Below the pieces are notes generated by a model that was not told where the DNA came from, made no database searches, and worked only from the letters and a program-made list of their open reading frames with translations. 64,000 nt of DNA from Isurus oxyrinchus. Taxonomy: Eukaryota. How positions within the stretch are numbered: the first letter of the stretch is position 1; each line of letters begins with the position of its first letter. A program made the position numbers and the translations under genes. Shown here piece by piece: positions 2,077-57,220 of the stretch. The stretch is from assembly GCA_026770705.1 (NCBI GenBank), contig JANJGN010000013.1:98642001-98706000 (forward strand), given 5' to 3'.

Positions 2077-3611
2077 GATAAAAACAAAAAAACTGCAAAT
2101 GCTGGAAATCCAAAACAAAAACAGAATTACCTGGAAAAACTCAACAGGTCTGGCAGCATCGGCGGAGAAGAAAAGAGTTGATGTTTCGAGTCCTCATGAC
2201 CCTTCGACAGAACTTGAGTTCGAGTCCAAGAAAGAGTTGAAATATAAGCTGGTTTAGGGTTGGGGGCGTGGGGTTGGGGGGGGGGGGGGGGGGGCGGCGG
2301 AGAGAGAGAGAGAGAGAGAAGTGGAGGGGGCTGGTGTGGTTGTAGGGACAAACTAGCAGTGATAGAAGCAGATCATCAAAAGATGTCACCAACAATAGAA
2401 CAAAAGAACACATAGGTGTTAAAGTTGGTGATATTATCTAAACGAATGTGCTAATTAAAAATGGATGGTAGGGCACTCAAGGTATAGCTCTAGTGGGGGT
2501 GGGGAGAGCATAAAAGATCTAAAAATATTTAAAAATAATGGAAATAGGTGGGAAAAGAAAAATCTATATAATTTATTGGAAAAAAAAAACAAAAGGAAGG
2601 GGGAAACAGAAAGGGGGTGGGGATGGGGGAGGGAGCTCAAGACCTAAAGTTGTTGAATTCAATATTCAGTCTGGAAGGCTGAAGTTGAGGTGTCGGAAGA
2701 TGAGGTGTTGTTCCTCCAGTTTGCATTGGACTTCACTGGAACAATGCAGCAAGCCAAGGACAGACATGTGGGCAAGAGAGCAGGGTGGAGTGTTAAAATG
2801 GCAAGCGACAGGGAGGTTTGGGTCATTCTTGCGGACAGACCGCAGGTGTTCTGCAAAGCGGTCGCCCAGTTTATGTTTGGTCTCTCCAATGTAGAGGAGA
2901 CCACATTGGGAGCAACAAATGCAGTAGACTAAGTTGGGGGAAATGCAAGTGAAATGCTGCTTCACTTGAAAGGAGTGTTTGGGCCCTTGGATGGTGAACA
3001 GAGAGGAAGTGAAGAGGCAGGTGTTGCATCTTTTGCGTGGTTATGGGGTGGTGCCATAGGAGGGTGTTGAGGAGCAGGGGATGATGGAGGAGTGGACCAG
3101 GGTGTCCCGGAGGGAGCGATCCCTACGGAATGCCAATAGGGGGGATGAAGGGAAGATGTGTTTGGTGGTGGCATCATGCTGGAGTTGGCGGAAATGGCGG
3201 AGGATGATCCTTTGAATGCAGAGGCTGGTGGGGTGATAAGTGAGGACAAGGGGGACCCTATCATGTTTCTGGGAGGGAGGAGAAGGCATGAGGGCGGATG
3301 CGCGGGAGATGGGCCAGACACGGTTGAGGGCCCTGTCAACGACCGTGGGTGGAAGACCTCGGTTAAGGAAGAAGGAGGACATGTCAGAGGAACTATTTTT
3401 GAAGGTAGCATCATTGGAACAGATGCGACGGAGGCGAAGGAACTGAGAGAATGGGATGGAGTCCTTACAGGAAGCGGGGTGTGAGGAGCTGTAGTCGAGG
3501 TAGCTGTGGGAGTCGGTGGGTTTGTAATGGATATTGGTGGACAGTCTATCACCAGAGATTGAGACAGAGAGGTCAAGGAAGGGAAGGGAAGTGTCAGAGA
3601 TGGACCACGTG
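2077..3611 (-). mobile_element. 5'-truncated upstream tandem copy of the same PLE (pseudo-LTR): RT thumb, GIY-YIG endonuclease, 3' UTR
   Basis: 3335-3611 is nearly identical to 1-277. ORFs 3041-3622 (PFLDL..YKPTDSHSYL) and 2666-2965 (NLVYCICCSQCGLLYIGET..RFAEH, GIY-YIG). Ends in the family 3' terminus ...ccagcatttgcagtttttttgttttt directly abutting the next unit. Confidence 0.92.
2176..2214 (-). ncRNA. Minimal type I hammerhead ribozyme motif (variant core) in PLE 3' end
   Basis: Minus strand: agtt-CTGTCGA-a-GGGTC-atgag-GACTC-GAAA-ca-TC-aact. Stem I agtt/aact, stem II gggtc/gactc. Confidence 0.7.
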
Positions 3612-4125: not shown

Positions 4126-4509
4126 TGCACTACCTCTTCAGGAAACACCTTCTTCATTGCCAGCCTGATGAGAAATAGTTTTGCTTCCAGCTACCATTTC
4201 ACCTCTAGTCCAAATTTTAGGTGTAGTAAGATGTGTGGAAAATGAACACACCTGAAGCTGGAGGAACAGTCCTCTGTGCAGCTGCTGTGCTGGTGAGGAT
4301 CACTGTACATCTACTGAATGGCTGCTCACTTCATGCTGGTCTACCAAAAGAACTTTCTGAACTGCACATTGCAGGCACTAAACGATTAAAATATGTATTA
4401 CGCTAACCAAGCCCCTTGACACTTCTGACCTTTGTGAATTTATCATTTGTATTTTCAGCTTTCCAATCTTTATTGTATCACTTGTGCATTTGCAAGTAAT
4501 AATTATAAT

Positions 4510-4636
4510 CGAAGGGTCATGAGGACTCGAAACATCAACTCTTTTCTTCTCCGCCGATGCTGCCAGACCTGCTGAGTTTTGCCAGGTAATTCTGTTTTTG
4601 TTTTGGATTTCCAGCATCCGCAGTTTTTTTGTTTTT
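4510..4636 (+). mobile_element. Mini-PLE: 127-bp 3'-end insertion with hammerhead stem II
   Basis: Reverse complement of 2080-2206. 11-bp TSD ataattataat at 4499-4509 and 4637-4647. Confidence 0.92.
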
Positions 4637-5269
4637 ATAATTATAATGGAATGGAGTTGGAAATACGTTCTCACTGAATTCCAGGCAAAACTTTCAATAA
4701 ACCGTGCACAGAAAGCTCTTTAATGGACAGTAATGTTACTCTTCTGTTATGTAAAAGGTCATCTGACCTAATTATAAATACTAGCGTGCAACCATAGAGA
4801 GAATATTTTAAACACTTTCCTGTCGAATATCCCTTCATTTGTTAAATAATTCATTTTCTTTCTTTGCAGTTTTGCACACACATAGTTTATCACTGTTTTA
4901 ATCCCAGACAATCAGCACTAGGTCAGAATGATTTATTACCACAGTCCTAAAGATTAAAAAATAGACAAAATAGCTATTTGAAACAGGGTCATATAGCCAA
5001 TTTTCAGAGCAAAATTTAAATGAAAGTCAAAAATGTCTGCATCTCTACCAGTTGCATTCCATGGATTAAAATCTATTGCCATGCACATGCAGAAAGAATT
5101 TGTGCAATCATTTGTAATTTAATCAATTTACTAAAGAAAATAAGAAACATAAAGAATTAATGAAGGTTTAACAGTCAATATATTGAAATTATCCACTAAT
5201 CCTGAATTTATTCATTATAAACTTCAAAAGGACAAAAAATTCAAACCCCACTAGTGCAGTTTAATTTAT

Positions 5270-7425: not shown

Positions 7426-8072
7426 AATAATCTGATCAGTTAAATAAATATGGTACTGGGATTCCACACTGGAGCTTCGCTAAACAGCGCAGTAGTTATG
7501 GAATCAACCTTGTAATCCTATTGCCCTGTCTCAGTCCAGCAAGGCACATTATGTCAGCAAAGCCTCACAGCTTTGAGCCCATATGCATAAAATATACCAA
7601 CTTGCTCATTTTTCTCATTAAAAAAATCATTTTGTTTCGCTTTTTTCTCAACTTTCTTTCCTTCTTCCTTTCTACAGATATTACACCTTTTGTTTTAAGT
7701 CTATGTTAATATACATTTAAAAGCCAAAAAATTGTGAGCTACCCTCAAAGTACCAAATTTTCAGTAAAAGTAATCATCAGACCTCTACTAAATAGGGGTT
7801 ATTGGTAATTCAGCCATCAATTTTTGATCTGGTGTATGGAAACCCCCATTAGCATCTATTCCACATATTTCTAATACTAAGTAATGTCTTGCCAAACAGT
7901 AATTGAAGGATACCAAAAAATGTTGCTCCTTTTTTCATGAACAATACATCAACATTAGTCAGAATAAGAATATATCAATAATTGAATGCTCTAAACCAAT
8001 CTAATGACAAGGTGTAAATCTCACACTACTCCTCTCCAGCATACTGCTTGGAATGGGGATAGGTGGAAAGAT

Positions 8073-9150
8073 AAAAACAAAACTGCGGATGCTGGAAATC
8101 CAAAACAAAAACAGAATTACCTGGAAAAACTCAGCAGGTCTGGCAGCATCGGCGGAGAAGAAAAGAGTTGACGTTTCGAGTCCTCATGACCCTTCGACAG
8201 AACTTGATTTCGAGTCCAAGAAAGAGTTGAAATATAAGCTGGTTTAAGGTGTGTGTGTGGGGGGGCGGAGAGATAGAGAGAGAGAGAGGTGCTTGTGTAG
8301 ACAAACAAGCAGTGATAGAAGCAGATCATCAAAAGATGTCAGCAACAATGGTACAAAAGAACACATAGGTGTTAAAGTTAAAGTTGGTGATATTATCTAA
8401 ACGAATGTGCTAATTAAGAATGGATGGTAGGGCACTCAAGGTACAGCTCTAGTGGGGGTGGGGGGAGCATAAAAGATTTTAAAATATTTAAAAATAATGG
8501 AAATAGGTGGGAAAAGAAAAATCTATATAATTTATAGGGAAGAGAAAAAAAGGGAAAAAGGGGGAAACAGAAAGGGGGTGGGGATGGGGGAGGGAGCTCA
8601 CGACCTAAAGTTGTTGAACTCAATATTCAGACCGGAAGGCTGTAAGGTGCCTAGTCGGAAGATGAGGTGTTGTTCCTCCAGTTTGCGTTGGGCTTCACTG
8701 GAACAATGCAGCAAGCCAAGGACAGACATGTGGGCAAGACAGCAGGGTGGAGTGTTAAAATGGCAAGCGACAGGGAGGTTTGGATCATTCTTGCGGACAG
8801 ACCGCAGGTGTTCTGCAAAGCGGTCACCCAGTTTACGTTTGGTCTCTCCAATGTAGAGGAGACCACATTGGGAGCAACAAATGCAGTAGACTAAGTTGGG
8901 GGAAATGCAAGTGAAATGCTGCTTCACTTGAAAGGAATGTTTGGGCCCTTGGACAGTGAGGAGAGAGGAAGTGAAGGGGCAGGTGTTACATCTTTTGCGT
9001 GGGCATGGGGTGGTGCCATAGGAGGGGGTTGAGGAGTAGGGGGTGATGGAGGAGTGGACCAGGGTGTCCCGGAGGGAACGATCCCTACGGAATGCCGATA
9101 AGGGGGGTGAAGGGAAGATGTGTTTGGTGGTGGCATCATGCTGGAGTTGG
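8073..9150 (-). mobile_element. 5'-truncated PLE with intact GIY-YIG frame and hammerhead motif
   Basis: Highly similar to 2080-3190. ORF 8598-9239 has CPRKRCNTC and NLVYCICCSQCGLLYIGET..GLNIEF. TSD tggaaagat at 8064-8072 and 9148-9156. Confidence 0.93.
8166..8204 (-). ncRNA. Minimal type I hammerhead ribozyme motif (variant core, palindromic ACGT stem III)
   Basis: Minus strand: agtt-CTGTCGA-a-GGGTC-atgag-GACTC-GAAA-cg-TC-aact. Confidence 0.72.
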
Positions 9151-16865: not shown

Positions 16866-17408
16866 ACTCCACTCCACTATTTCACTCCACTTCCTCTGCA
16901 TTAATATTCTTCTTACCAGGTGACCTACCCCTTGCACTGTATGTTGTAGGATTCTTTACCCAACCCCCACTTTACTCCACCTCCAGTAGAGCAGAATAGT
17001 TCCAATAATTTCTCATGCTTAGTAACTTTGAACTTATCAGCCTATGGGTGTTCTTCACAATTACGTTTCCCATGCCAGCCCTATGAGCTGTGTGATAAAT
17101 AAAATTCTCTGCTTTAAACTACATTTGTTGCTTTGGTCAGAGGCGATGCCTTAGGAATGTAATTGACTCACAACTTTTACTATCACATGAACAGTGTAGT
17201 TCTTGACTTTGTCCAATTGTGTAATATGGTGATAGTGGGACAGAAGCCCATTTTGTAACTGCCAATTTCTATATCCATTTACTTCAATGAGAATGATGTA
17301 AACTGACTGATGATTTTGTACCATTTAATTTACACCATTTCACCAAGTGGAGACCTAGAGTTTGCTCTAGAATTTGTTCAGTGTTGGTAGCTCTGATGAC
17401 AAGAGCGG

Positions 17409-17484
17409 TGGTGTAGCGTTATTTTCACTGTACAAGTAATCCAGAGACACAGGGTAATGCTCGAGGGACCCAAGTTCGAATCCC
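17409..17484 (+). promoter_or_regulatory. Pol III type-2 internal promoter (A box and B box)
   Basis: A box tggtgtagcg (17409-17418), B box agttcgaatccc (17473-17484). Homologous boxes in the SINE copy at 54463 and 54527. Confidence 0.72.
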
Positions 17485-17884
17485 ACCATGGCAGATGGGG
17501 TGAAATGTGAATTCAATAAAAATCTGGAACTAAAAGTCTAATGATGACATGAAACCATTGTTGATTGTCATAAAAAACAATCTGTTTCACTTCTTTAGGA
17601 AAGGAAATCTGCTGTCCTCACCTGGTCTGGCCTACATGTGACTCCAGACACACACCAATGTGATTGATTCTTAACTACCCTCGAAAAAGGCCTAGCAAGC
17701 CACTCAGTTGTATCGCTAAAAAGTGTAAAAGAAATGGAACTGGATGGATTATCCGGCATCGACATAGGCACCGGAAACGACAACAACAAGCTCAGCCCAA
17801 TCAACCCTGCAAAGTCCTCCTTACTAACATCTGGGGGCTAGTGCCAAAATTGGGAGAGCTGTCTCACAGACTAGTCAAGCAACA

Positions 17885-18038
17885 CTTCTATTTTTACTTA
17901 GGTCTGTTGAAGGGTCATTCGGACTCGAAACATTAACCGTGCTCCTATCTGCAGATGCTGCCAGACCTGCTGAGTTTATCCAGGTATTTTTGTTTTTGTT
18001 TTGGATTTCCAGCATTCGCAGTTTTTTGCTTTTATTTT
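17885..18038 (+). mobile_element. Mini-PLE (related subfamily) inserted in the LINE endonuclease region
   Basis: CTGTTGA-a-GGGTC-attcg-GACTC-GAAA-catt plus the family 3' end. Flanked by aaca on both sides; removal restores LVKQQPDIVIL. Confidence 0.88.
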
Positions 18039-20602
18039 AACAGCCTGACATAGTCATCCTCACGGAATCATACCTTACAACGTCTCTGACACCGCCATCA
18101 CCATCCCTGGGTATGTTCTGTCCCACTGGCAGGACAGACCCAGTAGAGGTCGTGGCACAGTGGTATACAGTCGGGAGGGAGTTGCCCTGGGAGTCCTCAA
18201 CATCAACTGCGGACCCCATGAAGTCTCATGGCATCAGGTCAAAGATTGGCAAGGAAGCCTTCTGCTGATTACTATATACCCCACCCCGCCCCGGTCCCTC
18301 AGCTGATGAATCAATATTCCTTTATGTTGAACACCACTTGGGGGAGGCACTGAGGGGGCAAGAGCACAGAATATACTCTGGGTGTGGGACTTCAATGTCC
18401 ATCACCAAGAGTGGCTCGTTAGCACCACTACTGACCAAGCTGGCAGAGTCCTAAAGGACACAGCTACTAGATTGGGTCTGCAACAAGTGGTGAAGGAACA
18501 TACAAGAAGGAAAAACATAATTAACCTCATCCTCGCCAAACTGCCTGCTGCAGATGCATCTGTCCATGATAGTATCGGTAGGAGTGACCACCGCACAGTC
18601 CTTGTGGAGACAAAGTCCCGTCTTCACATTGGGGATACCCTCCAACGAGCTGTGTGGCACTACCACCATGCTAAATGGGATAGATTTCAAACTGATTTAG
18701 CAACTCAAGACTGGGCAACCATGATGCGCTGTGGGCCACCAGCAGCAGCAGATTTGTAGTCAACCACATCCTGTAACCTCATGGCCCAGCATATCCCCTA
18801 TTCTATCATTACTACCAAGCAAGGGGATCAACCCTGGTTCAGTGCAGGAGGACATCTCAGGAGCAGCACCAGGCGTATCTAATAATGAGATGTCAACCTG
18901 GTGAAGCTACAACAGGGGACAATTTGCATGAAAAACAGCATAAGCAGCAAAGTGATAGACAAAGCTAAGCGATTCCACAGCCAACGGATCAGATCTAAGC
19001 TCTGCAGTCCTGCCACATCCAGTCATGAATGTTGGTGGACGGTTAAACAACTCACTGGAGGAGGAGGTTCCACATCCTAAATGATGGGGAGCCCACCACT
19101 TCAGTGCAAAAGGCAGGCTGAAGCATTTGCAACAATCTTCAGCCAGAAGTGCCAAGTGGATGACCCATCTCGGCCTCCTCCAGAGGTCCTCAGCATCACA
19201 GATGCCAGTCTTCAGCCAATTTGATTCACTCCACGTGATATCAAGAAACGGCTAAAGGCACTGGATATTACAAAGGCTATGGGCCCTGACAACATTCAGG
19301 CAACGGTACTAAAGACTTGTGCTCCAGAACTTGCCAAGCCCCAAGCCAAGCTAATACAGCTACAACACTGGCATCTACCCGGCAATGTGGAAAATTGCCC
19401 AGGTATGTCCTATACACAAAAAGCAGGACAAATCCAACCCGGCCAATTACTGTCCCATCCATCTGCTCTTCAGTAAAGAGATGGAAGGGATCATCATTAT
19501 ACTATCAAGTGGCACTTGCTTAGCAATAACCTGCTCACTGAAATCAGTTTGGCTCCTGCCAGGGCCACTCAGCTCCTGGTGTCATACAGCATGGACAAAA
19601 GAGCTGAACTCCCGAGGTGAGGCAAGAGTGGCTGCCCTTGACATCAATGCAACATTTGACCGAGTGTAGCATAAAGGTGCCCTAGCAACGCTGGAGTCAA
19701 TGGGATAAAGGGGGAAAACTTTCCACTGGTTGGAATCATAGCTAGCACAAAGGATGATGGTTGTGCTTGTTGGAGGTCAATCATCTCAGTCCCAGGACAT
19801 CACTGCACGAGCTCCTCAGGGTTGTGCCCTAGGCCCAACCATCTTCAGCTGCTTCATCAATGACCTTCCTTCTAACATAAGATTAGAAGTGGGGATGTTC
19901 GATGATGATTGCACAATCCTCAACACCATTTGGAACTCCTCAGGTACTGAAGCAGCCCATGTCCAAATGCAGCAAAACCTGGACAATATCCAGGCTTGGG
20001 CTGACAAAAGGCAAGTAACATTCGTGCCACAGGAGTGCCAGACAATGACCATTTCCAACAAGAGAGAATCCAACCATTGCCCCTTGATGTTCAATGGCAT
20101 TACCATCACTGGATTCCCCACTATCAACATCCTGGGGGTTACCATTGACCAGAAACTTAACTGGACTAGCCATATAAATACTGTAGCTACAAGAGCAGGT
20201 CAGAGACTCGGAATCCTGCAGCAATTAACTCACCTCCTGACTCCCCAAAGCCTGTCCACCATTACAAGGTACAATGTGAAGGAATGTGAAGGACTACTTC
20301 CCACTTGACTGGATGAGTGCAGCTCCAACAACACTCAAGAAGCTTGACACCATCAAGGTCAAAGCAGCCCGCTTAATTGGTACTCCTTCCACAAACATTC
20401 ACCCCTCCAACACCGATGCACAGTGCCAGTAGTGTGTACCATCTACAAGATGCACTGCAGGAACTCACCAAGCCTCCTTAGACAGTACCTTCCAAACCCA
20501 CAACTGCTACCATCCAGAAGGACAAGGTGAGCAGACAAATGGGAACACCACCACCTGGAAGTTCCCCTCCAAAACACTCACAATCCTGACATGGTAATAT
20601 AT

Positions 20603-20704
20603 GTGTTCTGTTGAAGGGTCATGAGGACTCGAAACGTCAGCTTTGCTCTTCTTTGCCAATGCTGCCAGACCTGCTGAGTTTTTCCAGGTAATTCTGTTTT
20701 TGTT
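20603..20704 (+). mobile_element. Mini-PLE inserted in the LINE 3' region
   Basis: CTGTTGA-a-GGGTC-atgag-GACTC-GAAACGTC. TSD atggtaatatat (20591-20602) and atggaaatatat (20705-20716). Confidence 0.9.
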
Positions 20705-21589
20705 ATGGAAATATATCACCGTTCTTCACTGTCACAGGGTCAAAATCCAGGTACTCCCTCCCTAATAGCACTGTGGTTGTACCTGCACCATAAGGACTGC
20801 AGTGATTCAAGAAGGCAGCTCACCACCACCTTCTCAAGGGTTATTAGGGATGGGCAAGCTGGTCTAGCCAGTGACAGCCACATTCCATGAATGAATGAAA
20901 AAAACTCTCAATGGGTTAGTTGCATGAGGAAAATTTGAGATCGGAGTAGATTGTGAATGAATCTCCAGAAATTTCAAATTAAAATTGGCAAACCAAAATG
21001 GTAATCAATGGAAGAATTAAAATTTGTAATGATTTGTGTCTTCATCAATGGCTTTAAATTAAATTTAATTAAGTAATATTGCGTCTTTAAATATTAAATA
21101 TATGAATGCATTTCTCAAAAGAAAGGATAATTAATCTATTTCATGATCTTCCATTTTATTCAGCTACTATGGAGATGATACAATATCCTTGGAATTACTA
21201 ATTTTTAAAGTTACTGTAATTTAGATATCAATTTTAATTCCCAGAATACTGATTTCCTAATTTGTAAGAATTGGAATTGTTGTAAGTAAAGGGTGGCACT
21301 GTGCATAATTTTTATATTAAATTTATTTTAATATCATAAAGTAATGCTGACAGCTTCTCCCATTATTTTGATCATTCTCTTAAGTCTACAAGGAGTTAAA
21401 TGTACTTAAATTATATCATACATACGGGCTCTTATATTTGTTTTACTGATAATGACACTATTAATTTATTTAAAATAGGTAGCTCAAGTTCTCTTGCTCT
21501 GAAAAATCTACATTTGACTAACAAGATTGTGCACACAGAGCTAGTAAACAGAGTAACAGTGAGAATTCATTGGTATATATGAGGAATTT

Positions 21590-22309: not shown

Positions 22310-22432
22310 TTCTGATGAAAGATTGAGACTTGACTTTGTTTCTCTCTCCACTGATACTGCCAGACCTGCTGAGTGTTTCCAGCATTTTCTGTTTTTATTT
22401 CAGATTTCCAGCAGTGCAGTATTTTGCTTTTG
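22310..22432 (+). mobile_element. Older mini-PLE 3'-end insertion with canonical CTGATGA remnant
   Basis: tctgatgaaag..gatactgccagacctgctgagtgtttccagcattttctgtttttatttcagatttccagca. Confidence 0.75.
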
Positions 22433-24261
22433 TGTTGTCTGAATACTCAGTCCTGTTATTCCAACATGTCCACAATTTAGTAGCACAGTACAAAAGGATG
22501 ACTAGTCAAATTGCTAAATCCAAAAATCCATTTGAGCATACAGCCAATATCTCATCATAAACACTCCAATGAAAAATGAATCATTTGAAGGTTATAATGA
22601 ACAATTTTTAAGTTCTCAAATTAACAGGAATGTAGCTCCATTCATTTGTTGACAAATCTTATTTAAAAAACAACTAATAATATCTTATGCTGGAGTATAT
22701 ACTAAAACCAACAATGTCTAAACTAAGACAGACAGTGAAAATCATTTACTCTGGGTACTTTCTTCAACTGAGTATATTAATTCCATTCCCATACCCTATA
22801 GATCACTCTCAGACCTCCAATAATTGCATCAATATTCATTTTTCAATTAGAAATTGATGTCGTTTTTATTTTTTTGCTTTATTTTTAATGATTAGTAACA
22901 ATGTTATTCCCTGTTTATTCTGATCATGTTGACTTTGTATTACCAGTGCCGAAATGAACAGGCGACACATATGTTTCTCTTCACTATTTTAACACAAGTA
23001 TAAAGTGGCATACAGAGGAGAATGCTACTTGCTTATTATTGTTATAGGCAACAATAACTGCCAGGCTTCTATCTCTGTAACGTGTTCTGAAATGAAATGT
23101 TTCTGCCAACCGCTATCGCTTTTGCAGTTAGTTACAAATTCTGCACCAAACAACTTGAAAGAAAGTGAATAGATAAAAGCTTCAGGCATCCTCAGATACC
23201 ACATTCAAAGTCACCATCCAGAATTCCCAGCATCACACATCATATTCTCCATGGACCACTCAGGTGATTCTCAACTGGGTACCTGCAAGAGAACAATCAG
23301 CCTGAGTTCCCGGCTGTAGCTTCACGATGGCAATAAAAAGTAAAGCAGTGACTGCCAAAAACCCAAAGTAACGAGAAAATGCTGGAATACACTGAGTTCT
23401 GATGCAGAGTCTGACCTTAAATATTGGCCTATCTTTCTGTTTGACTCACCTACTGTGTGTTTTCAGAATGTTCTGCTTTCATTTGTCAGCTTATGATAGG
23501 ATAAAACCTCTGGAATCACCAAACCACATATGTAGGTAACGCTCAACTTTATATTGCTGTGCAGTTCTACATATGTTTGTAGATGTTCAGCACATAAAAA
23601 TTTTCTTCATTTAATATAACTTTAAAATATGTAATAACATCAATTTGCCATTGCATAAATAGAACACAGGGTGATGTAATTTTTGTGAAGCTCATCAACT
23701 CAACTGGAGTAACACACATATGACTTCATCTCTCATGTCTTATATAATCAGATATGCTCACTGTATAAATATCACATGATATCAAGGCCTCTGGGATATC
23801 CCATAGTGAGTAACAGAAACGAAGGAAAGCAGTAAAACCGAAAGGAAAAGTGAGAGAAAACACCCAGATAGGAAAAATGAAAAACATAAGCGATGTTAAC
23901 AGAAAGAAAAATGAGGAAATTCAAATATCAAACTTAAGAAAGAGGGAAAGGCAAAAATGTATAGAAGAAAAAAAATGAATAAGAAAAAAGTAGAGCAATA
24001 TCTATAGATTTAAAAAATTATATCTAGGTGCACTCCCTGTGAATATTTCTCCATTCTAAAATCCTATGCCCTCATTCATAATGGAAACAGCATACGTAAA
24101 CTTATCATTTGGTAATTACATTCACCCACCCTGAAGAGGTGCTACAGCACTACCACTGGAAGAGGGTGTAATTATACCATGATAGGCAGTGTCAAAATCA
24201 GTCAGGAATTGACGTCCCAGTCATGGTCCACACGATTTTGGTGGATCACGTATACGTCAGT

Positions 24262-28029: not shown

Positions 28030-28715
28030 GCATGATTTGTGACCTGCTCCACTGTTTCTGTTGGAGGTAGGCAGCAGGCAAATTTGGTGTTGTCACCTCA
28101 TTTACATGATAGTGGCATTATGCTGAGCTCTAAACAAGAGTCATGAGGACTTGAAACGTTAATTCTGTTTCTCCCTCTACAGATGCTGCCAGACCTGCTG
28201 AGCTTTTCCAGCATTTTCTGTTTTTATTTCAGATTTCCAGCATCCACAGTATTTTGCTTTTAATTTGTGCTGAGCGGCTCCTGGCTGCTGGTTGCCTCGG
28301 TGCATTATCATCTGCCTCTTTACTGTGTAGGCAGCCAAATGGCATTGCACTGAGAGCCAAATTTCTATTGTTAAAGGCAGCCTGCCCCTCTTAAAAGAGA
28401 AGCTGCACTGAATTACAGGAGGTTGTTGCTGAACACAGCTGGTGAAACAAGAAAAATGGGACACAAGGGCAGAGAGAGGGTCCCAGGGTCACTGATGAGA
28501 CACTGCAGGCTTTAGTGATGCAGGTGAATTGAGCTCTGCTGGACTTTAGTACCAGTAAGCCAGGCCAGCCAAAATTCCACTGTTGTTTGGGGGAGGGGTA
28601 GGGAAGGAGGTGGAAGGATATATCATATATCTGCTCACGCCTCATCCCCCCACTTCCTGCAAAATCATGCAAGCCTACTTGAGGTGAACCCTAGACTATC
28701 CCTGAAATTCCGCTC
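28030..28715. mobile_element. Harbinger-derived non-autonomous element with Myb 5' remnant
   Basis: TIR-like gggcatgattt and gaaattccgctc. 28471-28527 encodes RERVPRVTDETLQALVMQV, like the Myb protein N-terminus. Confidence 0.5.
28132..28260 (+). mobile_element. Mini-PLE 3'-end insertion
   Basis: gagtcatgaggacttgaaacgttaa..gatgctgccagacctgctgag..gatttccagcatccacagtattttgc. Confidence 0.82.
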
Positions 28716-30496: not shown

Positions 30497-30630
30497 AAAA
30501 CAAAAACAAAACAAAACTGCGGATGCTGGAAATCCAAAACAAAAACAGAATTACCTGGAAAAACTCAGCAGGTCTGGCAGCATCGGCGGAGAAGAAAAGA
30601 GCCGATGCTTCGAGTCCTCATGACCCTTCG
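30497..30630 (-). mobile_element. Mini-PLE 3'-end insertion
   Basis: Matches 8073-8196. Duplication acagagtttgtggca at 30482-30496 and 30631-30645, of which acaga is also element sequence. Confidence 0.92.
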
Positions 30631-31320
30631 ACAGAGTTTGTGGCAGCCTGCCTCACCTAAATGACCATATTCCCAGGATTTGAGATGTAGCCTGCAGTCA
30701 GAATTCTGTTCTGATATGCTTGTACCAACAACATGGGACCTTCCCCCCAGAATTCCAGATGGAGAATTACTTCACCCAACAATTACTCCATGGCCACAGT
30801 AAACTACAGTTTCCCCTTAACAACACAGGGTTATAACGCTGCTTCCCTTATAATGCAGGAGATCATTCCAAATTACTATCAGCAAGGCCACTTAAGATCC
30901 ACAGAGGCCCTGAAATTCTGCAAAAGGCGTTCTCAGTCTCTCACCATAACTCCAGCAGGAGAACAGTATAAGATCTAGAGAAACGGTGTTAATATCCGAA
31001 GACATTCCTTCGTGCTGTTTACCAAGATAGGAGCCTGGAAGAACCTGCACAGAATTTCCAGCCCAATAGGTCGAGATTTCTAGGTCACACTTTCTTTGAA
31101 CGTATAAAGTGACAAATGCAATATTTTGGAATGTACGAAAATTTTACCCAACAAGAGAAAATACGTCAACTGACATCGGAGTCAAAATCTCTATAACCTC
31201 TGACTGATTTTAGCAATAACGCTTAAAAACAAGAGTCAAAGTTAAGAAATGCAACCTGAAAATCAATTAAACTCTGACCTTGCCCAGTTTACTTAACAAC
31301 AATAAAATTCATTTTAAAAA

Positions 31321-35673: not shown

Positions 35674-37287
35674 CTACAGGTCCGTTTCTGTATTTGGATC
35701 CAGACAAAGTGCGTACAGAGATTTCCTTATGTCCGGGGCACTGTTGGCCTTCAGGTGGGCCCCGGCGCCATTGTTCACCCCTTCACTGTTCTCCAAGGCT
35801 TTGCCCAGGGAGCTTCTGCTTCTCTTCAGCTCCTCCGAGTGACTGGCCTCGCTCTCCGTGTCGTCCTTCAGGTACTGAGCCTGCTCCTCGTTGTCCGTCT
35901 CCCGGTGGTAGAAGTAGTTAAAGTTGGAGACGATGACGGGCACAGGCAGGGCGATGGTCAGCACACCGGCGATGGCACACAAGGATCCCACGATCTTGCC
36001 GCCCATGGTGACCGGCTTCATGTCGCCGTAGCCCACCGTGGTCATGGTGACCACCGCCCACCAGAAGGCGTCGGGGATGCTGGAGAAATGGGACCTGGGC
36101 TCGTCCGCCTCCGCGAAGAACACGGCGCTGGAGAAGAGGATGACCCCAATGAAGAGGAAGAAGATGAGCAGGCCCAGCTCCCTCATGCTGGCCTTGAGAG
36201 TCTGGCCCAGGATCTGCAGCCCCTTGGAGTGTCTGGACAGCTTGAAGATGCGGAAAACCCGCACCAGGCGGATGACCCTGAGGATGGCCAAAGACATGGC
36301 TTGCTGACCATTAGACTGCTGCTCGGCCAGCTCGGTGCCCAGGGTGATGAAGTAAGGGAAGATGGCCACGATGTCGATGATGTTCATGATGTCCCGGGCG
36401 AAGACGGACTTGCTGGGACAAGCCAGGAATCGCACCAGCAGCTCCAGGGTGAACCAGACCACACAAGTGGTCTCAATGATGAAGAAGGGGTCAACCAGGC
36501 TGGTGCTGCTCTGGCTCTGGGTCCCATTTAGCGCCTGCTTTTCGGCGCTGTAGCGGTCATCGCGAAACTCGGGCAGGGTCTCCAGGCAGAAGATGATGAT
36601 GGAGATGACAATAACCAACACCGAGACGATGGCGATGCCCCGGGCTGGACTGGAGCTCTCGGGGTACTCAAACAGGAGCCACATCTGCTTCTGGAACTCA
36701 TTCTTGGGCAAAGCCTTCTCCTCTTCCTTGATGAAGCCCTCGTCCTCCCGGAATCTCTCCATGGCCTCGGGTCCCAGTTTGTAGAAGCGGATCTCGTCGG
36801 CGAACATGTCAATGGAAACGTTGACGGGTCTCCGGATCCTGCCGCCCGACTGGTAGAAATAGAGGATCCCGTCGAAACACGGGCGGTTGCGGTCGAAGAA
36901 GTACTCGTTTTTCAACGGGTCGAAGTACCTCATTCTCTTCTCGGGGTCGCCCAGCAGACTGTCCGGGAACTGGCTCAAGGTGCTCAGCTGGGTCTCGTAC
37001 CTGAGGCCGGCGATGTTGATGACCACTCGCTCCGAGCGGTTGACGTCCAGCAACTGCAGGTTGTCCACCGGCGGCCCCTGGTCCACGGCTTTCAGCAGGT
37101 TGTCGGGCAGCCCCGCCGCGTTCATGTCGTTCATGTTGCCGGCCGAGGGGCCACGAAGCGGCTGGGGGTCGGGCCAGCCACTGTCCGGGGCAGCGCTCAC
37201 ACCCAAGTGCGCCGAGATGCTGTTGCCTCTCTGACAGCTCCCCAGAGCCGCACCGCCGTCCTGCAACCTCACCAGAGCTATGTCCAT
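35674..37287 (-). CDS. KCNA5: Voltage-gated potassium channel Kv1.5 (Shaker family), 537 aa, intronless CDS
   Basis: T1 domain [17 protein letters not shown]4 [23 protein letters not shown], pore TTVGYGD, PVP hinge. N-terminus [13 protein letters not shown] and C-terminus [16 protein letters not shown] match Kv1.5 ([29 protein letters not shown]). Strong Kozak gggATGg. Confidence 0.95.
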
Positions 37288-37520
37288 CCCCGAGCCATTA
37301 AATATTCAACAGCGCGGCTCCCTCACTGATTCCCACATCTAGCAACAACACATCAGTCAGCGGGTAAGCTGGAGCGCTGACAGAGAGAGGAGAGAGCAGT
37401 GGAAATCAGAACCAGCCCCCATCCCAGAGGGAGACACAGAGATATATCAAACCATTGGTTACAGGAGCGGAACCCGGATGAGCAACGAGTAAATTATTCC
37501 AGCTCTCTCTGACGTCGAAT
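37288..37520 (-). promoter_or_regulatory. KCNA5 5' leader/proximal promoter candidate
   Basis: Three upstream ATGs, a polypyrimidine tract plus AG near 37378-37410, CCAAT at 37454-37458, and CRE-like tgacgtcg at 37510-37517. Confidence 0.4.
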
Positions 37521-41469: not shown

Positions 41470-41827
41470 TTTTTATTATTCATTCATGGGATGTGGGCAT
41501 CACTGACTAGGCCAACATTTATTGTCCATCCCTAACTGCCATTGTTCAGAGGGCATTTGAGAGTCAACCGTATCTGGAGTCACATGTAGGCCAGACCAAG
41601 TTAGAACTTTCCTAGATTTCTTTCCCTAAAGGGCTTTAGTGAACCAGATGGGTTTTTACAACAATCAGCAATGGTTTCATGGTCGTCATCAGACCTTTTA
41701 TTCCAGATTTCTATTGAATTCAAATTTCACTATCCGCCATAGTGGGATTTAAACCCAGGTCCCCAGAGAATTATCCTGGGTCTCTGAAATATTAGTCCAG
41801 TGACAATACCACTATGCCACTGCCTCC
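41470..41827 (-). mobile_element. tRNA-derived SINE (head and tail shared with the LINE at 17404-20904)
   Basis: Reverse complement of the 54455-54860 family: ctggagtcacatgtaggccagacc, tail cattcatgggatgtggg, head accactatgccactgcc. Confidence 0.88.
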
Positions 41828-42414
41828 CCTTTTAATACTGCCAAATTCCTGTGCTGTACACTTTTTAACCTGTGCTTCTTCTATCTTTCAGAGTCACTCG
41901 TTTTCTATCTCCCGTTCCCACCCTGAATTTGCCCTCAGGTTTCAATCCCCCTGTCAATCTAGTTTAACGCCCCCGCCCCCAACACCACAACCGCCAGCCC
42001 CACTCCCCAATAGCACTAGCAAATTGAAATGTTGAATTGTTTACAGCTTTTAAGCCCAGGACTTTGACAGTTTGCACAATGCACTAACGATTAGAATCCC
42101 AGTCATGTTGTAGGCATGGCTCTGTTTTAGTTTTTAAAAAACAAATTCTTGTTTAGATCTCTCCTTAAACAAAGATTTTTCAAAGGCAGCCTGACTAACA
42201 GTTACCTCATGAGTTTTAGGAATCCATACAGTGAAGTTTTAAGCATATTGATCGGAATGGCTGCACAATATGATTCTTTATAAAATAATGCACAAACACA
42301 ACTGAAGTCTATTTCCTCAGATGATTGTGACGCAATTTGCCCTAGCTTCTTAAAATGATGATGGGATTAGTAATAATGTAAATAGTCATTTGGTAGTATA
42401 GAACTTTATATTGC

Positions 42415-52278: not shown

Positions 52279-52648
52279 TTTTTTTCTAGTTGTTCCTGGA
52301 ATGTGGGTACCACTGGCTGGGCCAGCATTTATTGCCCATCCCTAATTACCCTTGAGAAGGCGGTGGTGTGCTGCCTCTTGAATTGCTGCAATCCATGTGT
52401 TGTAGGAACATCCACAGTGCTGTTAGGAAAGGAGTTCCAGGATTTTGACTTGGTGACAGTGAAGGAGCAGTGATATAGTTCTAAATCAGGATGGTGTGTG
52501 ATTTGAAGGGAAACTTCCAATTGATGGTGTTCCCATGCATCTGCTGCCCTTGTCCTTCAAGGTGATAGAGGTCGCAGGTGATAGAGGTTGCAGGTTTGGA
52601 AGGTGCTGTCGAAGGAGCCTTGGTGAGTTTCTGCGGTGGATCTTGTAG
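52279..52648 (-). mobile_element. 3' fragment of the tRNA-headed LINE family
   Basis: Reverse complement of about 20450-20900 without the mini-PLE insert. Confidence 0.85.
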
Positions 52649-54454
52649 AGCTCGTGCTGTTCCTGCTCTTGCTGCTCCTACTGGTCATCTTTGTCCTCAT
52701 CTGCAGTCCAAAGTAACACAGCATCAGTGGCACCTGATCCAAATTGCAGATCAGGCATCCAAAGTGTAGATGACACCTCCAAAGTTGTAAAAGTTACTTC
52801 TCAGCACAAGTACTGTGAATAAAGCCTTTCACGTAAGCAGGCAGAAAAGTAGTTGTGAGGTTTCAGTACTTATTGGCATATTTCCCTGATATATCTGCAG
52901 CACCCTCATTTGGCATTGTGTTCTAGCATTGCTTTATTGGGGTTTTCCAGGAAGACCAAGAAATTTGTGGACCCACATTTAAATTGCAAAAGCCATGTTA
53001 ATAATGCTGTAATTACATAACTGCTGTAATTGAGCAATTAAAATATTTAAATTGACAACCTCTCTTTCTGGAGGGGATTGTGCACACATACCCAAACGCG
53101 CTGGAGTTAAATGCGGAAGTCAGTGGGTTGGAGCCCACATCCTGACTTGCTCCCATTTTTCTGAACCCCAACCCACATCCAAACACTCACCCAGGTTAAA
53201 AATCTCTCCAATACTACTACTTTCCAATGGGGTTCATCTACAATAAATTCAGCAGAAGGTCTTCAGAAATGGCATTAACGATACGAATCTTTGGGGCATG
53301 TAAGGATTGTCCACTGAAATTACAGCAGATGGTGGGAAAATTCTCACAGAAGTTCAACCCCAAAATCTTTTATTCAACTTTTGTACTTCATAATATAAGT
53401 CATTTCCCCCTACAAACAAATATGTGTAACATACAATATAACGACTACAATCAAAGAATCGTAAGCCATATTTATGAATTGACACAAATTGCACCATAAA
53501 CATATTACTGGATATTGTATGTGGTGCAAAACAAAGATCAACTTTTAACTTGAGAGTGGTCCTACCTGAAGAGTGCAGTGTCTTCTTCAATATTCAGCCC
53601 TTCAATGGTCCACTTAGGCTGGTGGTCTGCCATGAGCCTCTGACCTGCAAACACTGCTTTGGCTTCTTTGGATGTGCTGGTTCCATTCTGTCATTACTGC
53701 CAAATAGGAAAAGATCAACATAAGGAGAAAGCTCTTGAGGTACTTACACTTCAACAACTCTACAAGTAAGCTCTTGGTTGAAGCCTGTTTTGGATAATTC
53801 TGGAAGGTCATATGCTCACATTAATCATCTAAAAATTAGGTATCAAAAGTCTCCTGATGGCACTTTCTTTGATGTGGGCACTTTCACAATACGGGAGGCA
53901 AACTCAGATTGTATGATCTTCTGTAGGATTGTAAATATAATGTGGCCCCAAGTGGATAATGAATCTGCATGTGGAATCAGTATACAGCTTCAGTAATGGA
54001 AGTAATCTTTCTATTTATTTTTTCCCACAGGGTAGGGAACCTATCGCTGTCTGATTCATTTGCTTGGGTTGACATGTGTGGTCAATTCTAACATCCTCAG
54101 GCTTCCCATTGCAGTGCTGCTAGAACATGGGATAGTGAGCTTGGGTTAATGCATAGTTATTTCCTAATCTCGGCTTTGCCATTATAAGGAAAACTAAATG
54201 AAGATCGCACATTAGATTCTGTTGCACACTACTTGGTTCAAGTGCCATTGATGGATACCAGGAATCAGATCACAGTGAGTAGCATAGTGAGATTTAGAAA
54301 ATGGGAAGAGTAGAAACACAGAAAATAGGTTAAGGGTTTTCAGTGCAGTACATCATGGTGTTCTATAAACTGAGCTTCAGTCGTGCACATATAAATGACA
54401 GAATTGTGCAGAAAGGTTACATTTACTTAACAACATGTTAGGCAGAGTATTTGA

Positions 54455-54860
54455 GGGGATGGTGATGTAGTGGTAATGTCACTGGACTCGTTGCCCAGAG
54501 ACCCAAACTGATGCTGTGGGGACTTGGGTTCAAATCTCACATGGCAGCTGGTGGAATTTAAATTAAATTAATTTTTAAAAATCTGGAATTGAAAACTAGT
54601 CTCAGTAATGTTGACCAGGAAACTATTGTCAATTGTCATAAAAACCCACCTGGATCACTAAAGTCCTTTAGGGAAGGAAATCTGCCATCCTTACCCGGTC
54701 TGGCCTACATGTGACTCCAGGCCCACAGCAATAAGGTTTACTCTTAACTGTCCTCTGAACTTGCCTAGTATGCCATTCAGCTCAAGAGTAATTAGGGATG
54801 GGCAACATATGCTGGCCTTACCAGCGACACAGACATCCCATGAAAGGATAAAATAAAAAT
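54455..54860 (+). mobile_element. Full-length tRNA-derived SINE (about 400 bp)
   Basis: A box tgatgtagtgg, B box ggttcaaatct. Body matches 17404-17707 and tail matches 20833-20904. Confidence 0.9.
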
Positions 54861-56239
54861 TGAGCAAGCCTTGATTTTGTTAAACTATACCATTGTACAA
54901 TATAAGGATACAGCAACTGTTTACAACTTTGGTAATTCTTAGCCCTAGTTAATAGTTTGGTGTAGTGCATTGAACCAGTGTAGGAGATAAAATCTTTAAA
55001 TTTACAAGATGACATTGTTCTCTTGCTCAGTTAAGTGATGATGACAAGGATTTTGTCAATTCTTAAGGTTCACTGTCCCCTAAGAATACATGGGGCTGCT
55101 CCAGCATGAGTACGCACTCTGTATCCCAGTGGACACTTGCATTAAATAAAAGAGCACAAATTTTATACAACATTTTTAAAAAATGTATTTTTATAATCCT
55201 TTAAATTATAAACCACAGTATGAGGTTTTACACTGCTTTTCCTATTCTTAAACAAAGATTCTCCTCTGTCTCTGTACCACCACTTACTTTGTCCCACATT
55301 AAGTTTCCCCAACACGAGAGTGGGTGTCAACCAGACAAGTACTGTCTATGGCTTGATCAACAGCATCTTGGGAGTCAAAAGACGTGGGCCACAAACTTCC
55401 AACTACTGTCCACCTGAATATTATGGCGCTGAAAATCCACAGATCAAGTCTCTCCTGCTGGGTACCTCTAGCAGCAAACCCATGTGAGTACCCAGGTCTG
55501 GGGAGATTTTCTATCCTGTATGAAAATGTCAAGTGATTGGTGTATGTTGGGCACCTGCTAGAATAGTAGGGCAGGGTGCAAGGAAGATCTGGTAACTGCC
55601 ACCTCTGAAGCTGTCAGCAGAAAAATGTTAAAGTCCCAGTGTAACACTTGTAAACACGTTTCACCTATTTTGTGAATCTCTTCATGGGTCTAGGCTTTGA
55701 GCCACATTTCACTGCAAGGCTGTTATGCATCCTTTCATCCAATGTATTGACTACAAGTCTTCCTCCAGACTGGGCTGAGGGTGTTGCTGCACTGGAAGTC
55801 CTTGTTCCCTGTCCATACCCCGTCTCACACAACAGGGAAAAGCAAATATGCATGGCAGGCAGATATGGGAATTTGGAACATTTGGGTTCCTTTGAAGTGA
55901 CCGGTCTTTAAATCACAGGACAGACAGCAAAGAGGAACTGGCGAAACAAAGACTTTTGCAACTTTGGTTACTGAAATTGCAACATAATTTTTCACAATAA
56001 ACCATACAGCCCATATATTTGGATCAATTTTAACTCAGTGTTCCCAGCTGACAAAGGGAAGGATTCAAAGTTACAGGGAGTTGTCAGGTTCCAGTTTTCA
56101 CCTGAATTCTTGAGGTGGGAGCAAGAAAATTCACCCAAAGCATGGGGTGTGAGGTGGGGTTACTTGACATAGAATCTTACAGCAGAAGGTCTTTGAAAGA
56201 GCTATCCAGTTAGTCCCACTGGAGGCATGCCTAGCACCA

Positions 56240-57220
56240 AAGAAATGGTTATGGTTATTGGAGGTCAAACATCTTAGCCTCAAGATATTGATGTAGGAAT
56301 TCATCAGGGAAGTGCCCTAGGACCAACTACCTTCAGCTGTTCCATCTGTTACCTTCATTCCATCATAAAATAATGGCATTCACTGATGATTGCAGTGTTT
56401 AATTTTATTCACAACTACTTAGATAATGAAACAGTTCATGCCCACATATAGCAAGACATGGACAACATTCAGGCTTAGGCTAATAAGTGACATGTAACAT
56501 CTGCACCACACAAGAGCCAAACAATGAGTATTATTATCAAACCCCTCACCACCGACCTCCTAGGGGCCACTATAGACCAGAAAATTAACCGCGCCAGCCA
56601 AATAAATACTATGCCTACAAGAGCAAGTCAAATGTTGGATGTTTTGTGGCAAGCAACTCATCTCATGATTTTCCTAAATCCTGTGCACCATCCATCCACA
56701 AGGCACTAGTCAGGAGTGTGATGGAACTCTCTTCATTTGCCTGGCTGCAACAACACTCAAGAAGCTCCACACCATCCAGGACCAAGCAATCCGCTTGATC
56801 AGCACCCCATCCACCACCTTAAACTTTACTATCATCCAACACAGGTGAGCTGTGGCTGCAGTGTGTACCATATACAAGATGCACTGCAACAACTCGGCAT
56901 GGTCTCCATGATAGCACCTCCCAATGTGGCACCTTCATTACCTAGAAGGACAAGGGCAGAAGATTAATGGGAACACCACCACCTTCAAGTTCTCCTCCAA
57001 ATCACACACCATTCTGACATGGAAATATACTGGTGTACCTGCATCGCCCTAGATTAAATCCTGGAAATCCCTGCCCAACAACACCTGCTTGTAACTTTGC
57101 CACACGGTCTTAAATGGCTCAAGAAGGCAACTCAACACCACCTTCTAGAGAACAACTAGGGATAGGTAATAAATACTGTGCTTGATTGCAATGACCACAT
57201 CCCTTGAATGAATAAAAAAA
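56240..57220 (+). mobile_element. Older 5'-truncated copy of the tRNA-headed LINE family
   Basis: Colinear with 19750-20904 (ttggaggtcaa, gaccagaaaattaac, caacactcaagaagc, tail tgaatgaataaaaaaa). Confidence 0.85.

Follow-up and report, generated by a model that had tools for sequence, protein, structure and literature searches.

The window, a stretch of 64,000 nucleotides of Isurus oxyrinchus DNA (shark genome size ~5 Gb), carries at 54455..54860 (+ strand) a decayed copy of a SINE family, here called A, with 88% identity to the family consensus. Its head has two short insertions. Three parts can be distinguished, all on the + strand. A tRNA-like head (54455..54550), in which an A box (~54463-54473) and a B box (~54527-54537) can be read from the sequence, is followed by a middle region (54551..54781) that corresponds, by sequence comparison, to the 5′ untranslated region of a LINE. 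The remainder (54782..54860) is a LINE-derived tail with the last ORF codons and stop, the 3′ UTR, and a short A tail, again identified by sequence comparison. The sequence-only reading had proposed that this SINE equals the head plus tail of a LINE located at 17404..20904 and that essentially the whole SINE, the tRNA part included, lies within that LINE. Both proposals are borne out. Window self-BLAST aligns SINE 54461-54780 with LINE 17407-17707 (71.8% over 323 columns, E 2e-40) and SINE 54781-54857 with LINE 20833-20904 (75.3% over 77 columns, E 3e-7). At the consensus level, SINE positions 1-327 match LINE 2-317 (89.3%) and positions 327-400 match LINE 3218-3291 (90.5%), so that a single LINE accounts, with its 5′ and 3′ ends, for 400 of 400 nt of the SINE, as expected for a SIDE. 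The SINE consensus derives from 30 loci and the LINE consensus from the window copy plus 20 loci, the latter chosen for having head and ORF. This alignment maps the family A junction to LINE consensus 317|3218, and, given two short foreign insertions in the window copy of the LINE, the stretch deleted in the SINE corresponds to 2,900 nt of the LINE consensus. The T5 noted in the middle region is present at 54572-54576; it is private to this copy and not part of the family consensus.

The element at 41470..41829 (− strand) had been read as a further copy of this SINE. It does follow the same plan, since 41470-41827 aligns with LINE 17405-17651 (77.3%) and 20844-20904 (77.3%) in the self-BLAST, but its junction (LINE consensus 294|3219) and its head differ, and it represents another family, B. 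The family B junction is 23 nt further upstream than that of family A, and the B head resembles that of LINE subfamily B and lacks the two short insertions of A. The genome has 6,121 exact 16-mer matches to the family A junction and 6,359 to that of family B. With a length of ~400 nt, no coding capacity, a high copy number, and a tail taken from a LINE, these elements have the properties of SINEs.

The LINE itself is a near full-length, decayed elasmobranch Zenon element of subfamily B (17404..20904, + strand; 86-88% to consensus). The head that it has in common with the SINEs covers 17404..17709 (A box ~17409-17419, B box ~17473-17484, by sequence comparison) and is followed by a broken single ORF (17710..20846) for an endonuclease (from ~17817; Pfam PF14529) and a reverse transcriptase (PF00078), with no ORF1. 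The ORF is interrupted by two later insertions identified by self-BLAST: one at 17885..18038 (−) that corresponds to the end of a Penelope-like repeat, the long repeat concerned giving a weak match to GIY-YIG, and another insertion of this short repeat at 20603..20705 (+; also given to 20709). Two further Zenon fragments, recognized by consensus comparison, are a 5′-truncated 3′ end at 52281..52649 (−; 83%) and an older, 5′-truncated Zenon-like fragment at 56220..57220 (+; 71%). Penelope-like element ends of 100-140 nt are found elsewhere in the window as well (2078-2214, 4509-4638, 8068-8204, 22323-22436, 28136-28268, and 30497-30635), in addition to those inside the Zenon copy (17900-18038 and 20605-20709), and one lies within a SINE at another locus (L150). 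The window also has an intact 543-codon frame for a Shaker-type potassium channel (35674-37305, −; BTB_2 and Ion_trans domains), within which Rfam places a K-channel RNA editing signal (35923-36036, 107 bits). No ribozyme was detected by Rfam in the window.

The LINE consensus is 3,294 nt long and has one 975-codon frame (PF14529/PF03372 and PF00078) preceded by 300 nt, without ORF1; its stop codon sits inside the tail common to LINE and SINE. Thirteen of 20 fetched copies extend from head to tail, and both LINE and SINE copies end in short A-rich stretches, as is characteristic of CR1-Zenon. Flanking direct repeats of at least 7 nt were present in 2 of 42 copies, compared to 3.6% by chance, and long target-site duplications are absent. 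No intact LINE copy was found: the longest open frame was 493 aa among the first 125 loci and 603 aa in another listing. Heptranchias, Mobula, and Heterodontus supply the close named protein matches, with 58-80% across a portion of the query; other relatives do not exceed 47%. In a quick reverse transcriptase tree, which has no named Zenon reference, the LINE groups with single-ORF relatives (SH-aLRT 95), and in the Atlas only generic EN-RT clusters were found for a homologue. Comparison with the covered parts of PMC13343379 assigns the LINE to elasmobranch CR1-Zenon. By eye, the first 400 nt of CarCar_Zenon-1 agree almost base for base with the LINE consensus head, and a 17-nt head motif retrieves the Zenon rows in the supplement. 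Like the LINE here, the elasmobranch Zenon elements listed there (CarCar, RhiTyp, HypSab, ScyCan, and SquAca) have a single ORF, no ORF1, and an A tail, and CarCar_Zenon-1 is 3,288 nt compared with 3,294 nt. The LINE sequence is already published; the head, the SINE families, and the T-run avoidance discussed below were not found described in the covered parts of that paper. Neither tRNA nor polymerase III occurs in its text, and SINE occurs once. Likewise, no publication on a tRNA-headed Zenon, on these SINEs, or on a Pol III-made LINE was found in the openly accessible literature.

The head forms the native 5′ end of the LINE. It lies directly upstream in 27 of 29 other LINE copies, the remaining two being cut at the ORF start and having unrelated flanks. 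These copies were found with 150 nt of LINE-only sequence (the best 40 of 1,921 candidates, of which 30 were fetched, one being the window copy); as those closest to the window copy, they are skewed to one subfamily. Genome-wide, the head-to-ORF join has 6,487 exact 16-mer matches. The sequence-only reading had named LINE copies with another 5′ end, or a separate tail on the head at 17404, as observations that would speak against it; neither turned up, and the head at 17404 runs directly into the ORF. Moreover, the same head opens seven of seven published shark and ray Zenon consensuses and none of three from hagfish and coelacanth (first 400 nt of each; covered parts of PMC13343379), and the head-to-ORF join is common to the Zenon consensuses of five species (PMC13343379).

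The tRNA character of the head is evident from its A and B boxes, as in SINE2 (tRNA-derived) elements. ARAGORN at default settings recognizes a tRNA in each of the two consensus heads and none in the window copies. Decayed copies have Rfam tRNA scores of 24.9-26.5 bits in three of 10 loci, which is below the cut-off, or no score, and the B box is retained within one mismatch in 51 of 74 LINE heads. The anticodon reads Thr; the long extra arm is reminiscent of Ser or Leu tRNA. None of the Lys, Val, Cys, Pro, and Ile tRNA genes retrieved was a good match to the head. Large tandem tRNA gene clusters were seen at 13.3-17.1 Mb of contig C35. Folding of the head, core, and tail, each from a single copy, was no better than that of shuffled sequences (z 0.69, -0.81, and -0.51). 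Among invertebrate-type relatives, A plus B boxes were present upstream in 0 of 64 with enough upstream DNA, a head profile gave nothing under E 1 in 160 loci, and ARAGORN called no tRNA in 60 loci. It is therefore likely that the head was gained earlier by a LINE ancestor, with a tRNA or a more ancient SINE as its source, and because Zenon-like elements outside sharks and rays do not have it, head capture is likely at that older level only.

Apparent transfer to corals was considered and rejected. One coral-labelled metagenome run contains the SINE, the whole LINE, and abundant shark-like repeats; the CR1 and Penelope-like repeats of the shark appear in it too and carry identical differences, which points to shark-like nucleic acid in the run and gives no evidence of transfer. 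A 29-nt core motif had no match in metagenome contigs. Intact animal CR1-type LINE contigs also occur in many prokaryote genome bins (L281-L360), where they are likely host contamination.

How the SINEs relate to the LINE can be traced through their heads, tails, and junctions. A 24-mer common to LINE and SINEs has 13,530 exact matches in the genome. Thirty loci sharing it, the first by position from one chromosome end and sorted by eye, comprise nine LINEs, 13 SINE-B, four with the A junction, three other deletions, and one that could not be assigned. A-type heads joined to LINE sequence gave 90 matches, which means that A-type LINEs exist; their consensus protein is 95% like that of the B type, and the dogfish Zenon head is of the A type by eye (PMC13343379). 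In a tree of 123 heads (four "other" rows left out), all nine SINE-B heads fall within a 100/95 clade together with 41 LINE heads; 29 of 32 SINE-A heads group weakly with older LINE heads, and three of 32 fall outside. This tree is star-like and its bootstrap is unsettled (0.667). The tails agree with the heads: the variant GAAAG is present in 21 of 32 SINE-A and three of five A-LINE tails, and GAATG or GAAC in eight of nine SINE-B, such that the head and tail variants of each SINE pair with its own LINE subfamily. Further junctions, with A-type heads, lie at ~353|3136 (L404/L422) and ~337|3179 (L400/L420), twice each, and may represent small incipient SINE families; several others were seen once. 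The junctions thus amount to a minimum of two large types and two small ones, not to numerous demonstrated births, and some of them have short microhomology. One locus (L145) is a mosaic of a B head with the A junction, which indicates that recombination between elements occurs. Since there are several junctions and the heads follow the LINE subfamilies, repeated deletion from a headed LINE is favored, and the SINEs are very probably deletion products of the LINE. Of the two alternatives put forward initially, internal deletion accounts best for the SINEs, and capture of the head by the LINE holds only as a probable older event.

Two other explanations of the common head have to be considered in the light of these data. 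In one, head and LINE are chance neighbors, brought together when a SINE landed immediately upstream of a truncated LINE copy at 17404. SINEs do enter Zenon copies: four of 30 sampled (L130, L135, L139, and L142) are located within other Zenon copies, and L135 and L142 show overlaps of 0-3 nt, which may reflect local density or a target preference. Yet no tail follows the head, and the recurrence of the head-to-ORF join across copies, genome, and species described above refutes this explanation, to which we give a negligible probability. In the second, an ordinary SINE with a tRNA head, a body, and a Zenon tail came first and repeatedly gave its head to Zenon via recombination. Such an order of events would fit with the head being foreign to other Zenons, with the mosaic copy, and with module swapping, which is common among SINEs (PMC5786205). 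It is nevertheless improbable, considering that the very sequence in which SINE-A ends extends onward into the LINE ORF region, that one head is common to at least four junctions, and that SINE-B is nested in the younger LINE clade. Repeated capture would also be expected to leave an outcome other than the one head-to-ORF join that every elasmobranch Zenon covered here has.

The LINE has a further property with a bearing on its transcription. The shortest Pol III terminators are TTTT and TVTTT (PMC8466645), and the 3,294-nt LINE consensus has neither; TTT occurs six times against 27.8 expected, and the consensus from 40 A-type loci has the same deficit as the B-type LINE. Runs of four are present for A (15), C (11), and G (9). 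A shark CR1 consensus constructed by the same procedure contains 12 T4 runs and six TVTTT in 2,146 nt. The observed/expected ratio for TTT is 0.22 in the LINE, compared with 0.69 upward (median 1.1) in 125 related frames of at least 600 aa, and each of 98 related frames of at least 800 aa has at least five terminator-like sites. Avoidance extends to synonymous sites. With a run defined as three T and CpG sites left out, T is found at one of 36 run-forming synonymous T/C sites and at 115 of 381 elsewhere (odds ratio 0.10, p 1.3e-4), and in the A subfamily at two of 38 run-forming and 108 of 382 other sites. The corresponding odds ratios are 0.99 for A-runs, 1.53 for the shark CR1, and a minimum of 0.39 (median 1.0) for the 98 relatives; these controls are unbalanced, consisting mostly of AT-rich invertebrate elements, and the most GC-rich of them (L285) has only one T4. 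Phe is low in the LINE protein, at 1.85% compared with a median of 4.6%, yet the residue persists in 14 of 16 conserved Phe columns. T4 occurs once in the 3,243 nt of the LINE copy in the window and 2.8-7.5 times per kb in the CR1 copies there. The older Zenon-like fragment at 56220-57220, a single decayed copy, has 3.0 T4 per kb, which speaks against a Pol III reading. RNA-type contigs cover the LINE; such contigs say nothing on starts, ends, polymerase, or expression. The LINE begins 4-8 nt before the tRNA fold, a position that would fit a Pol III precursor.

Collectively, the LINE itself is likely made by RNA polymerase III. The competing possibility is that the SINEs are deletion derivatives of a full-length LINE transcribed by Pol II, from its own promoter or by host read-through. 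In this scenario, the head would be a structural or translation element, or a promoter for the short derivatives, and the avoidance of T-runs would have another cause. LINEs are regarded as being transcribed by Pol II and Pol III is described as weakly processive (PMC10886601), and RTE-1_DAn's tRNA-like sequence was noted without a Pol III claim (covered parts of PMC5786205). The sense strand of the LINE is also T-poor overall (20%), and zero TTTT is on its own a weak signal, with P(0) of 0.087, 0.013, 0.185, and 0.70 under four nulls, i.e., non-significant under three of them. Against this alternative, the avoidance is specific to T-runs, acts at synonymous sites in both subfamilies, and is absent in the shark CR1 and the 98 relatives, and the start just ahead of the tRNA fold resembles that of a Pol III precursor. 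We therefore consider transcription by Pol II a serious but unlikely alternative, and the reading that we judge probable is that the SINE arose from head and tail of a shark Zenon LINE by internal deletion, the LINE being transcribed end to end by Pol III.

The first in-frame Met of the LINE is at codon 291, past the endonuclease, and in all seven Zenon-like relatives checked an in-frame Met precedes it. The lack of an in-frame AUG before codon 291 fits with an uncapped RNA. Just upstream of the frame there is an in-frame ATG-x-TAG, with TAG in 44 of 74 copies and GAG in 10; stop read-through as a general start route was rejected, as a further in-frame TAA is present in 13 of 74 LINE copies. 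An out-of-frame ATG (consensus 350-455; window ~17734-17840) opens a 35-codon frame that overlaps the endonuclease start and is a possible candidate for a frameshift start. It is present in the first Zenon consensus of all five species (PMC13343379).

In the model that we favor, the head would have been gained once, before the shark/ray split, a tRNA or a SINE of earlier date being the source. Its A and B boxes would recruit Pol III, which would read the whole 3.3 kb and stop at the first T-run in the flanking DNA. The uncapped LINE RNA would be translated from a non-standard start, and the LINE protein would bind the tail and insert the RNA by target-primed reverse transcription. Skips while copying would join head to tail; because a deletion product of this kind would keep both promoter and tail, it would at once be a mobile SINE, and two such products would have reached thousands of copies. 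The LINE would then amount to an autonomous, 3.3-kb "coding SINE" of sharks and rays, made by Pol III, with its ORF recoded against terminators and translated with neither cap nor AUG, and giving birth to SINEs in one step, a description that we hold to be slightly on the probable side. By the customary split, LINEs use Pol II (PMC10886601) and SINEs cannot encode protein (PMC5786205). If the model is correct, a vertebrate LINE on a tRNA promoter breaks the division between coding, Pol II-transcribed LINEs and non-coding, Pol III-transcribed SINEs, and Pol III can produce a translated 3.3-kb mRNA. It would also provide a one-step route of SINE birth, traceable through several junctions within one genome. 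Two questions thereby become testable, the translation of uncapped Pol III RNA and the origin of SINE bodies.

Known SINEs and their derivatives resemble the shark elements in part. The suggestion that the middle region holds a MetaSINE central domain found no support by eye or exact motif. The Meta domain is a 66-bp sequence right after the tRNA region (PMC4824008), and compared by eye with the bivalve Meta consensuses, the only common word is 11 nt long and ~100 nt too far downstream. Six exact motifs had no matches in the bivalve SINE consensuses of the PMC4824008 supplement; this applies to the Deu, V, and CORE domains as well, as represented in those consensuses, and V showed no likeness by eye. 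The cartilaginous-fish SINEs HE1 (V), SacSINE1 (Deu), and CmiSINE (CORE) are also tRNA-headed; they have conserved central domains, and SacSINE1 and CmiSINE an L2 tail, whereas the shark elements described here have a Zenon body and tail. This distinction is drawn from their descriptions (PMC4824008 and PMC5499810, covered parts).

Similar in build are the bipartite SINEs Bov-tA, CoeSINE4, and SINE2_Gav, derived from RTE and Vingi elements, which likewise combine a tRNA head with a LINE 5′ UTR and 3′ tail (PMC5786205). In these, the deletion came first and the head was joined on later, the parent LINE having none, unlike the situation here. The parents named for bipartite SINEs are of the RTE, Ingi, Vingi, and R2 clades, with Zenon not among them in the covered parts of PMC5786205; RTE-1_DAn and relatives, of another clade, are LINEs holding a tRNA-like sequence as the LINE here does (PMC5786205). 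A parallel in origin is Persaeus, a SIDE of lepidopteran Zenon that comprises the Zenon 5′ and 3′ ends, with ORF start and end included, and that arose several times by internal deletion (PMC6740152), as proposed here. Persaeus shows neither homology to tRNA nor a Pol III promoter, and the definition given with it asks for elements without a small-RNA head (PMC6740152), whereas the head of the shark elements is tRNA-like. Here, the parent LINE carries the tRNA head, and so its deletion product has the anatomy of a SINE. As judged from this comparison, the shark elements would combine the build of a SINE2 with the birth of a SIDE.
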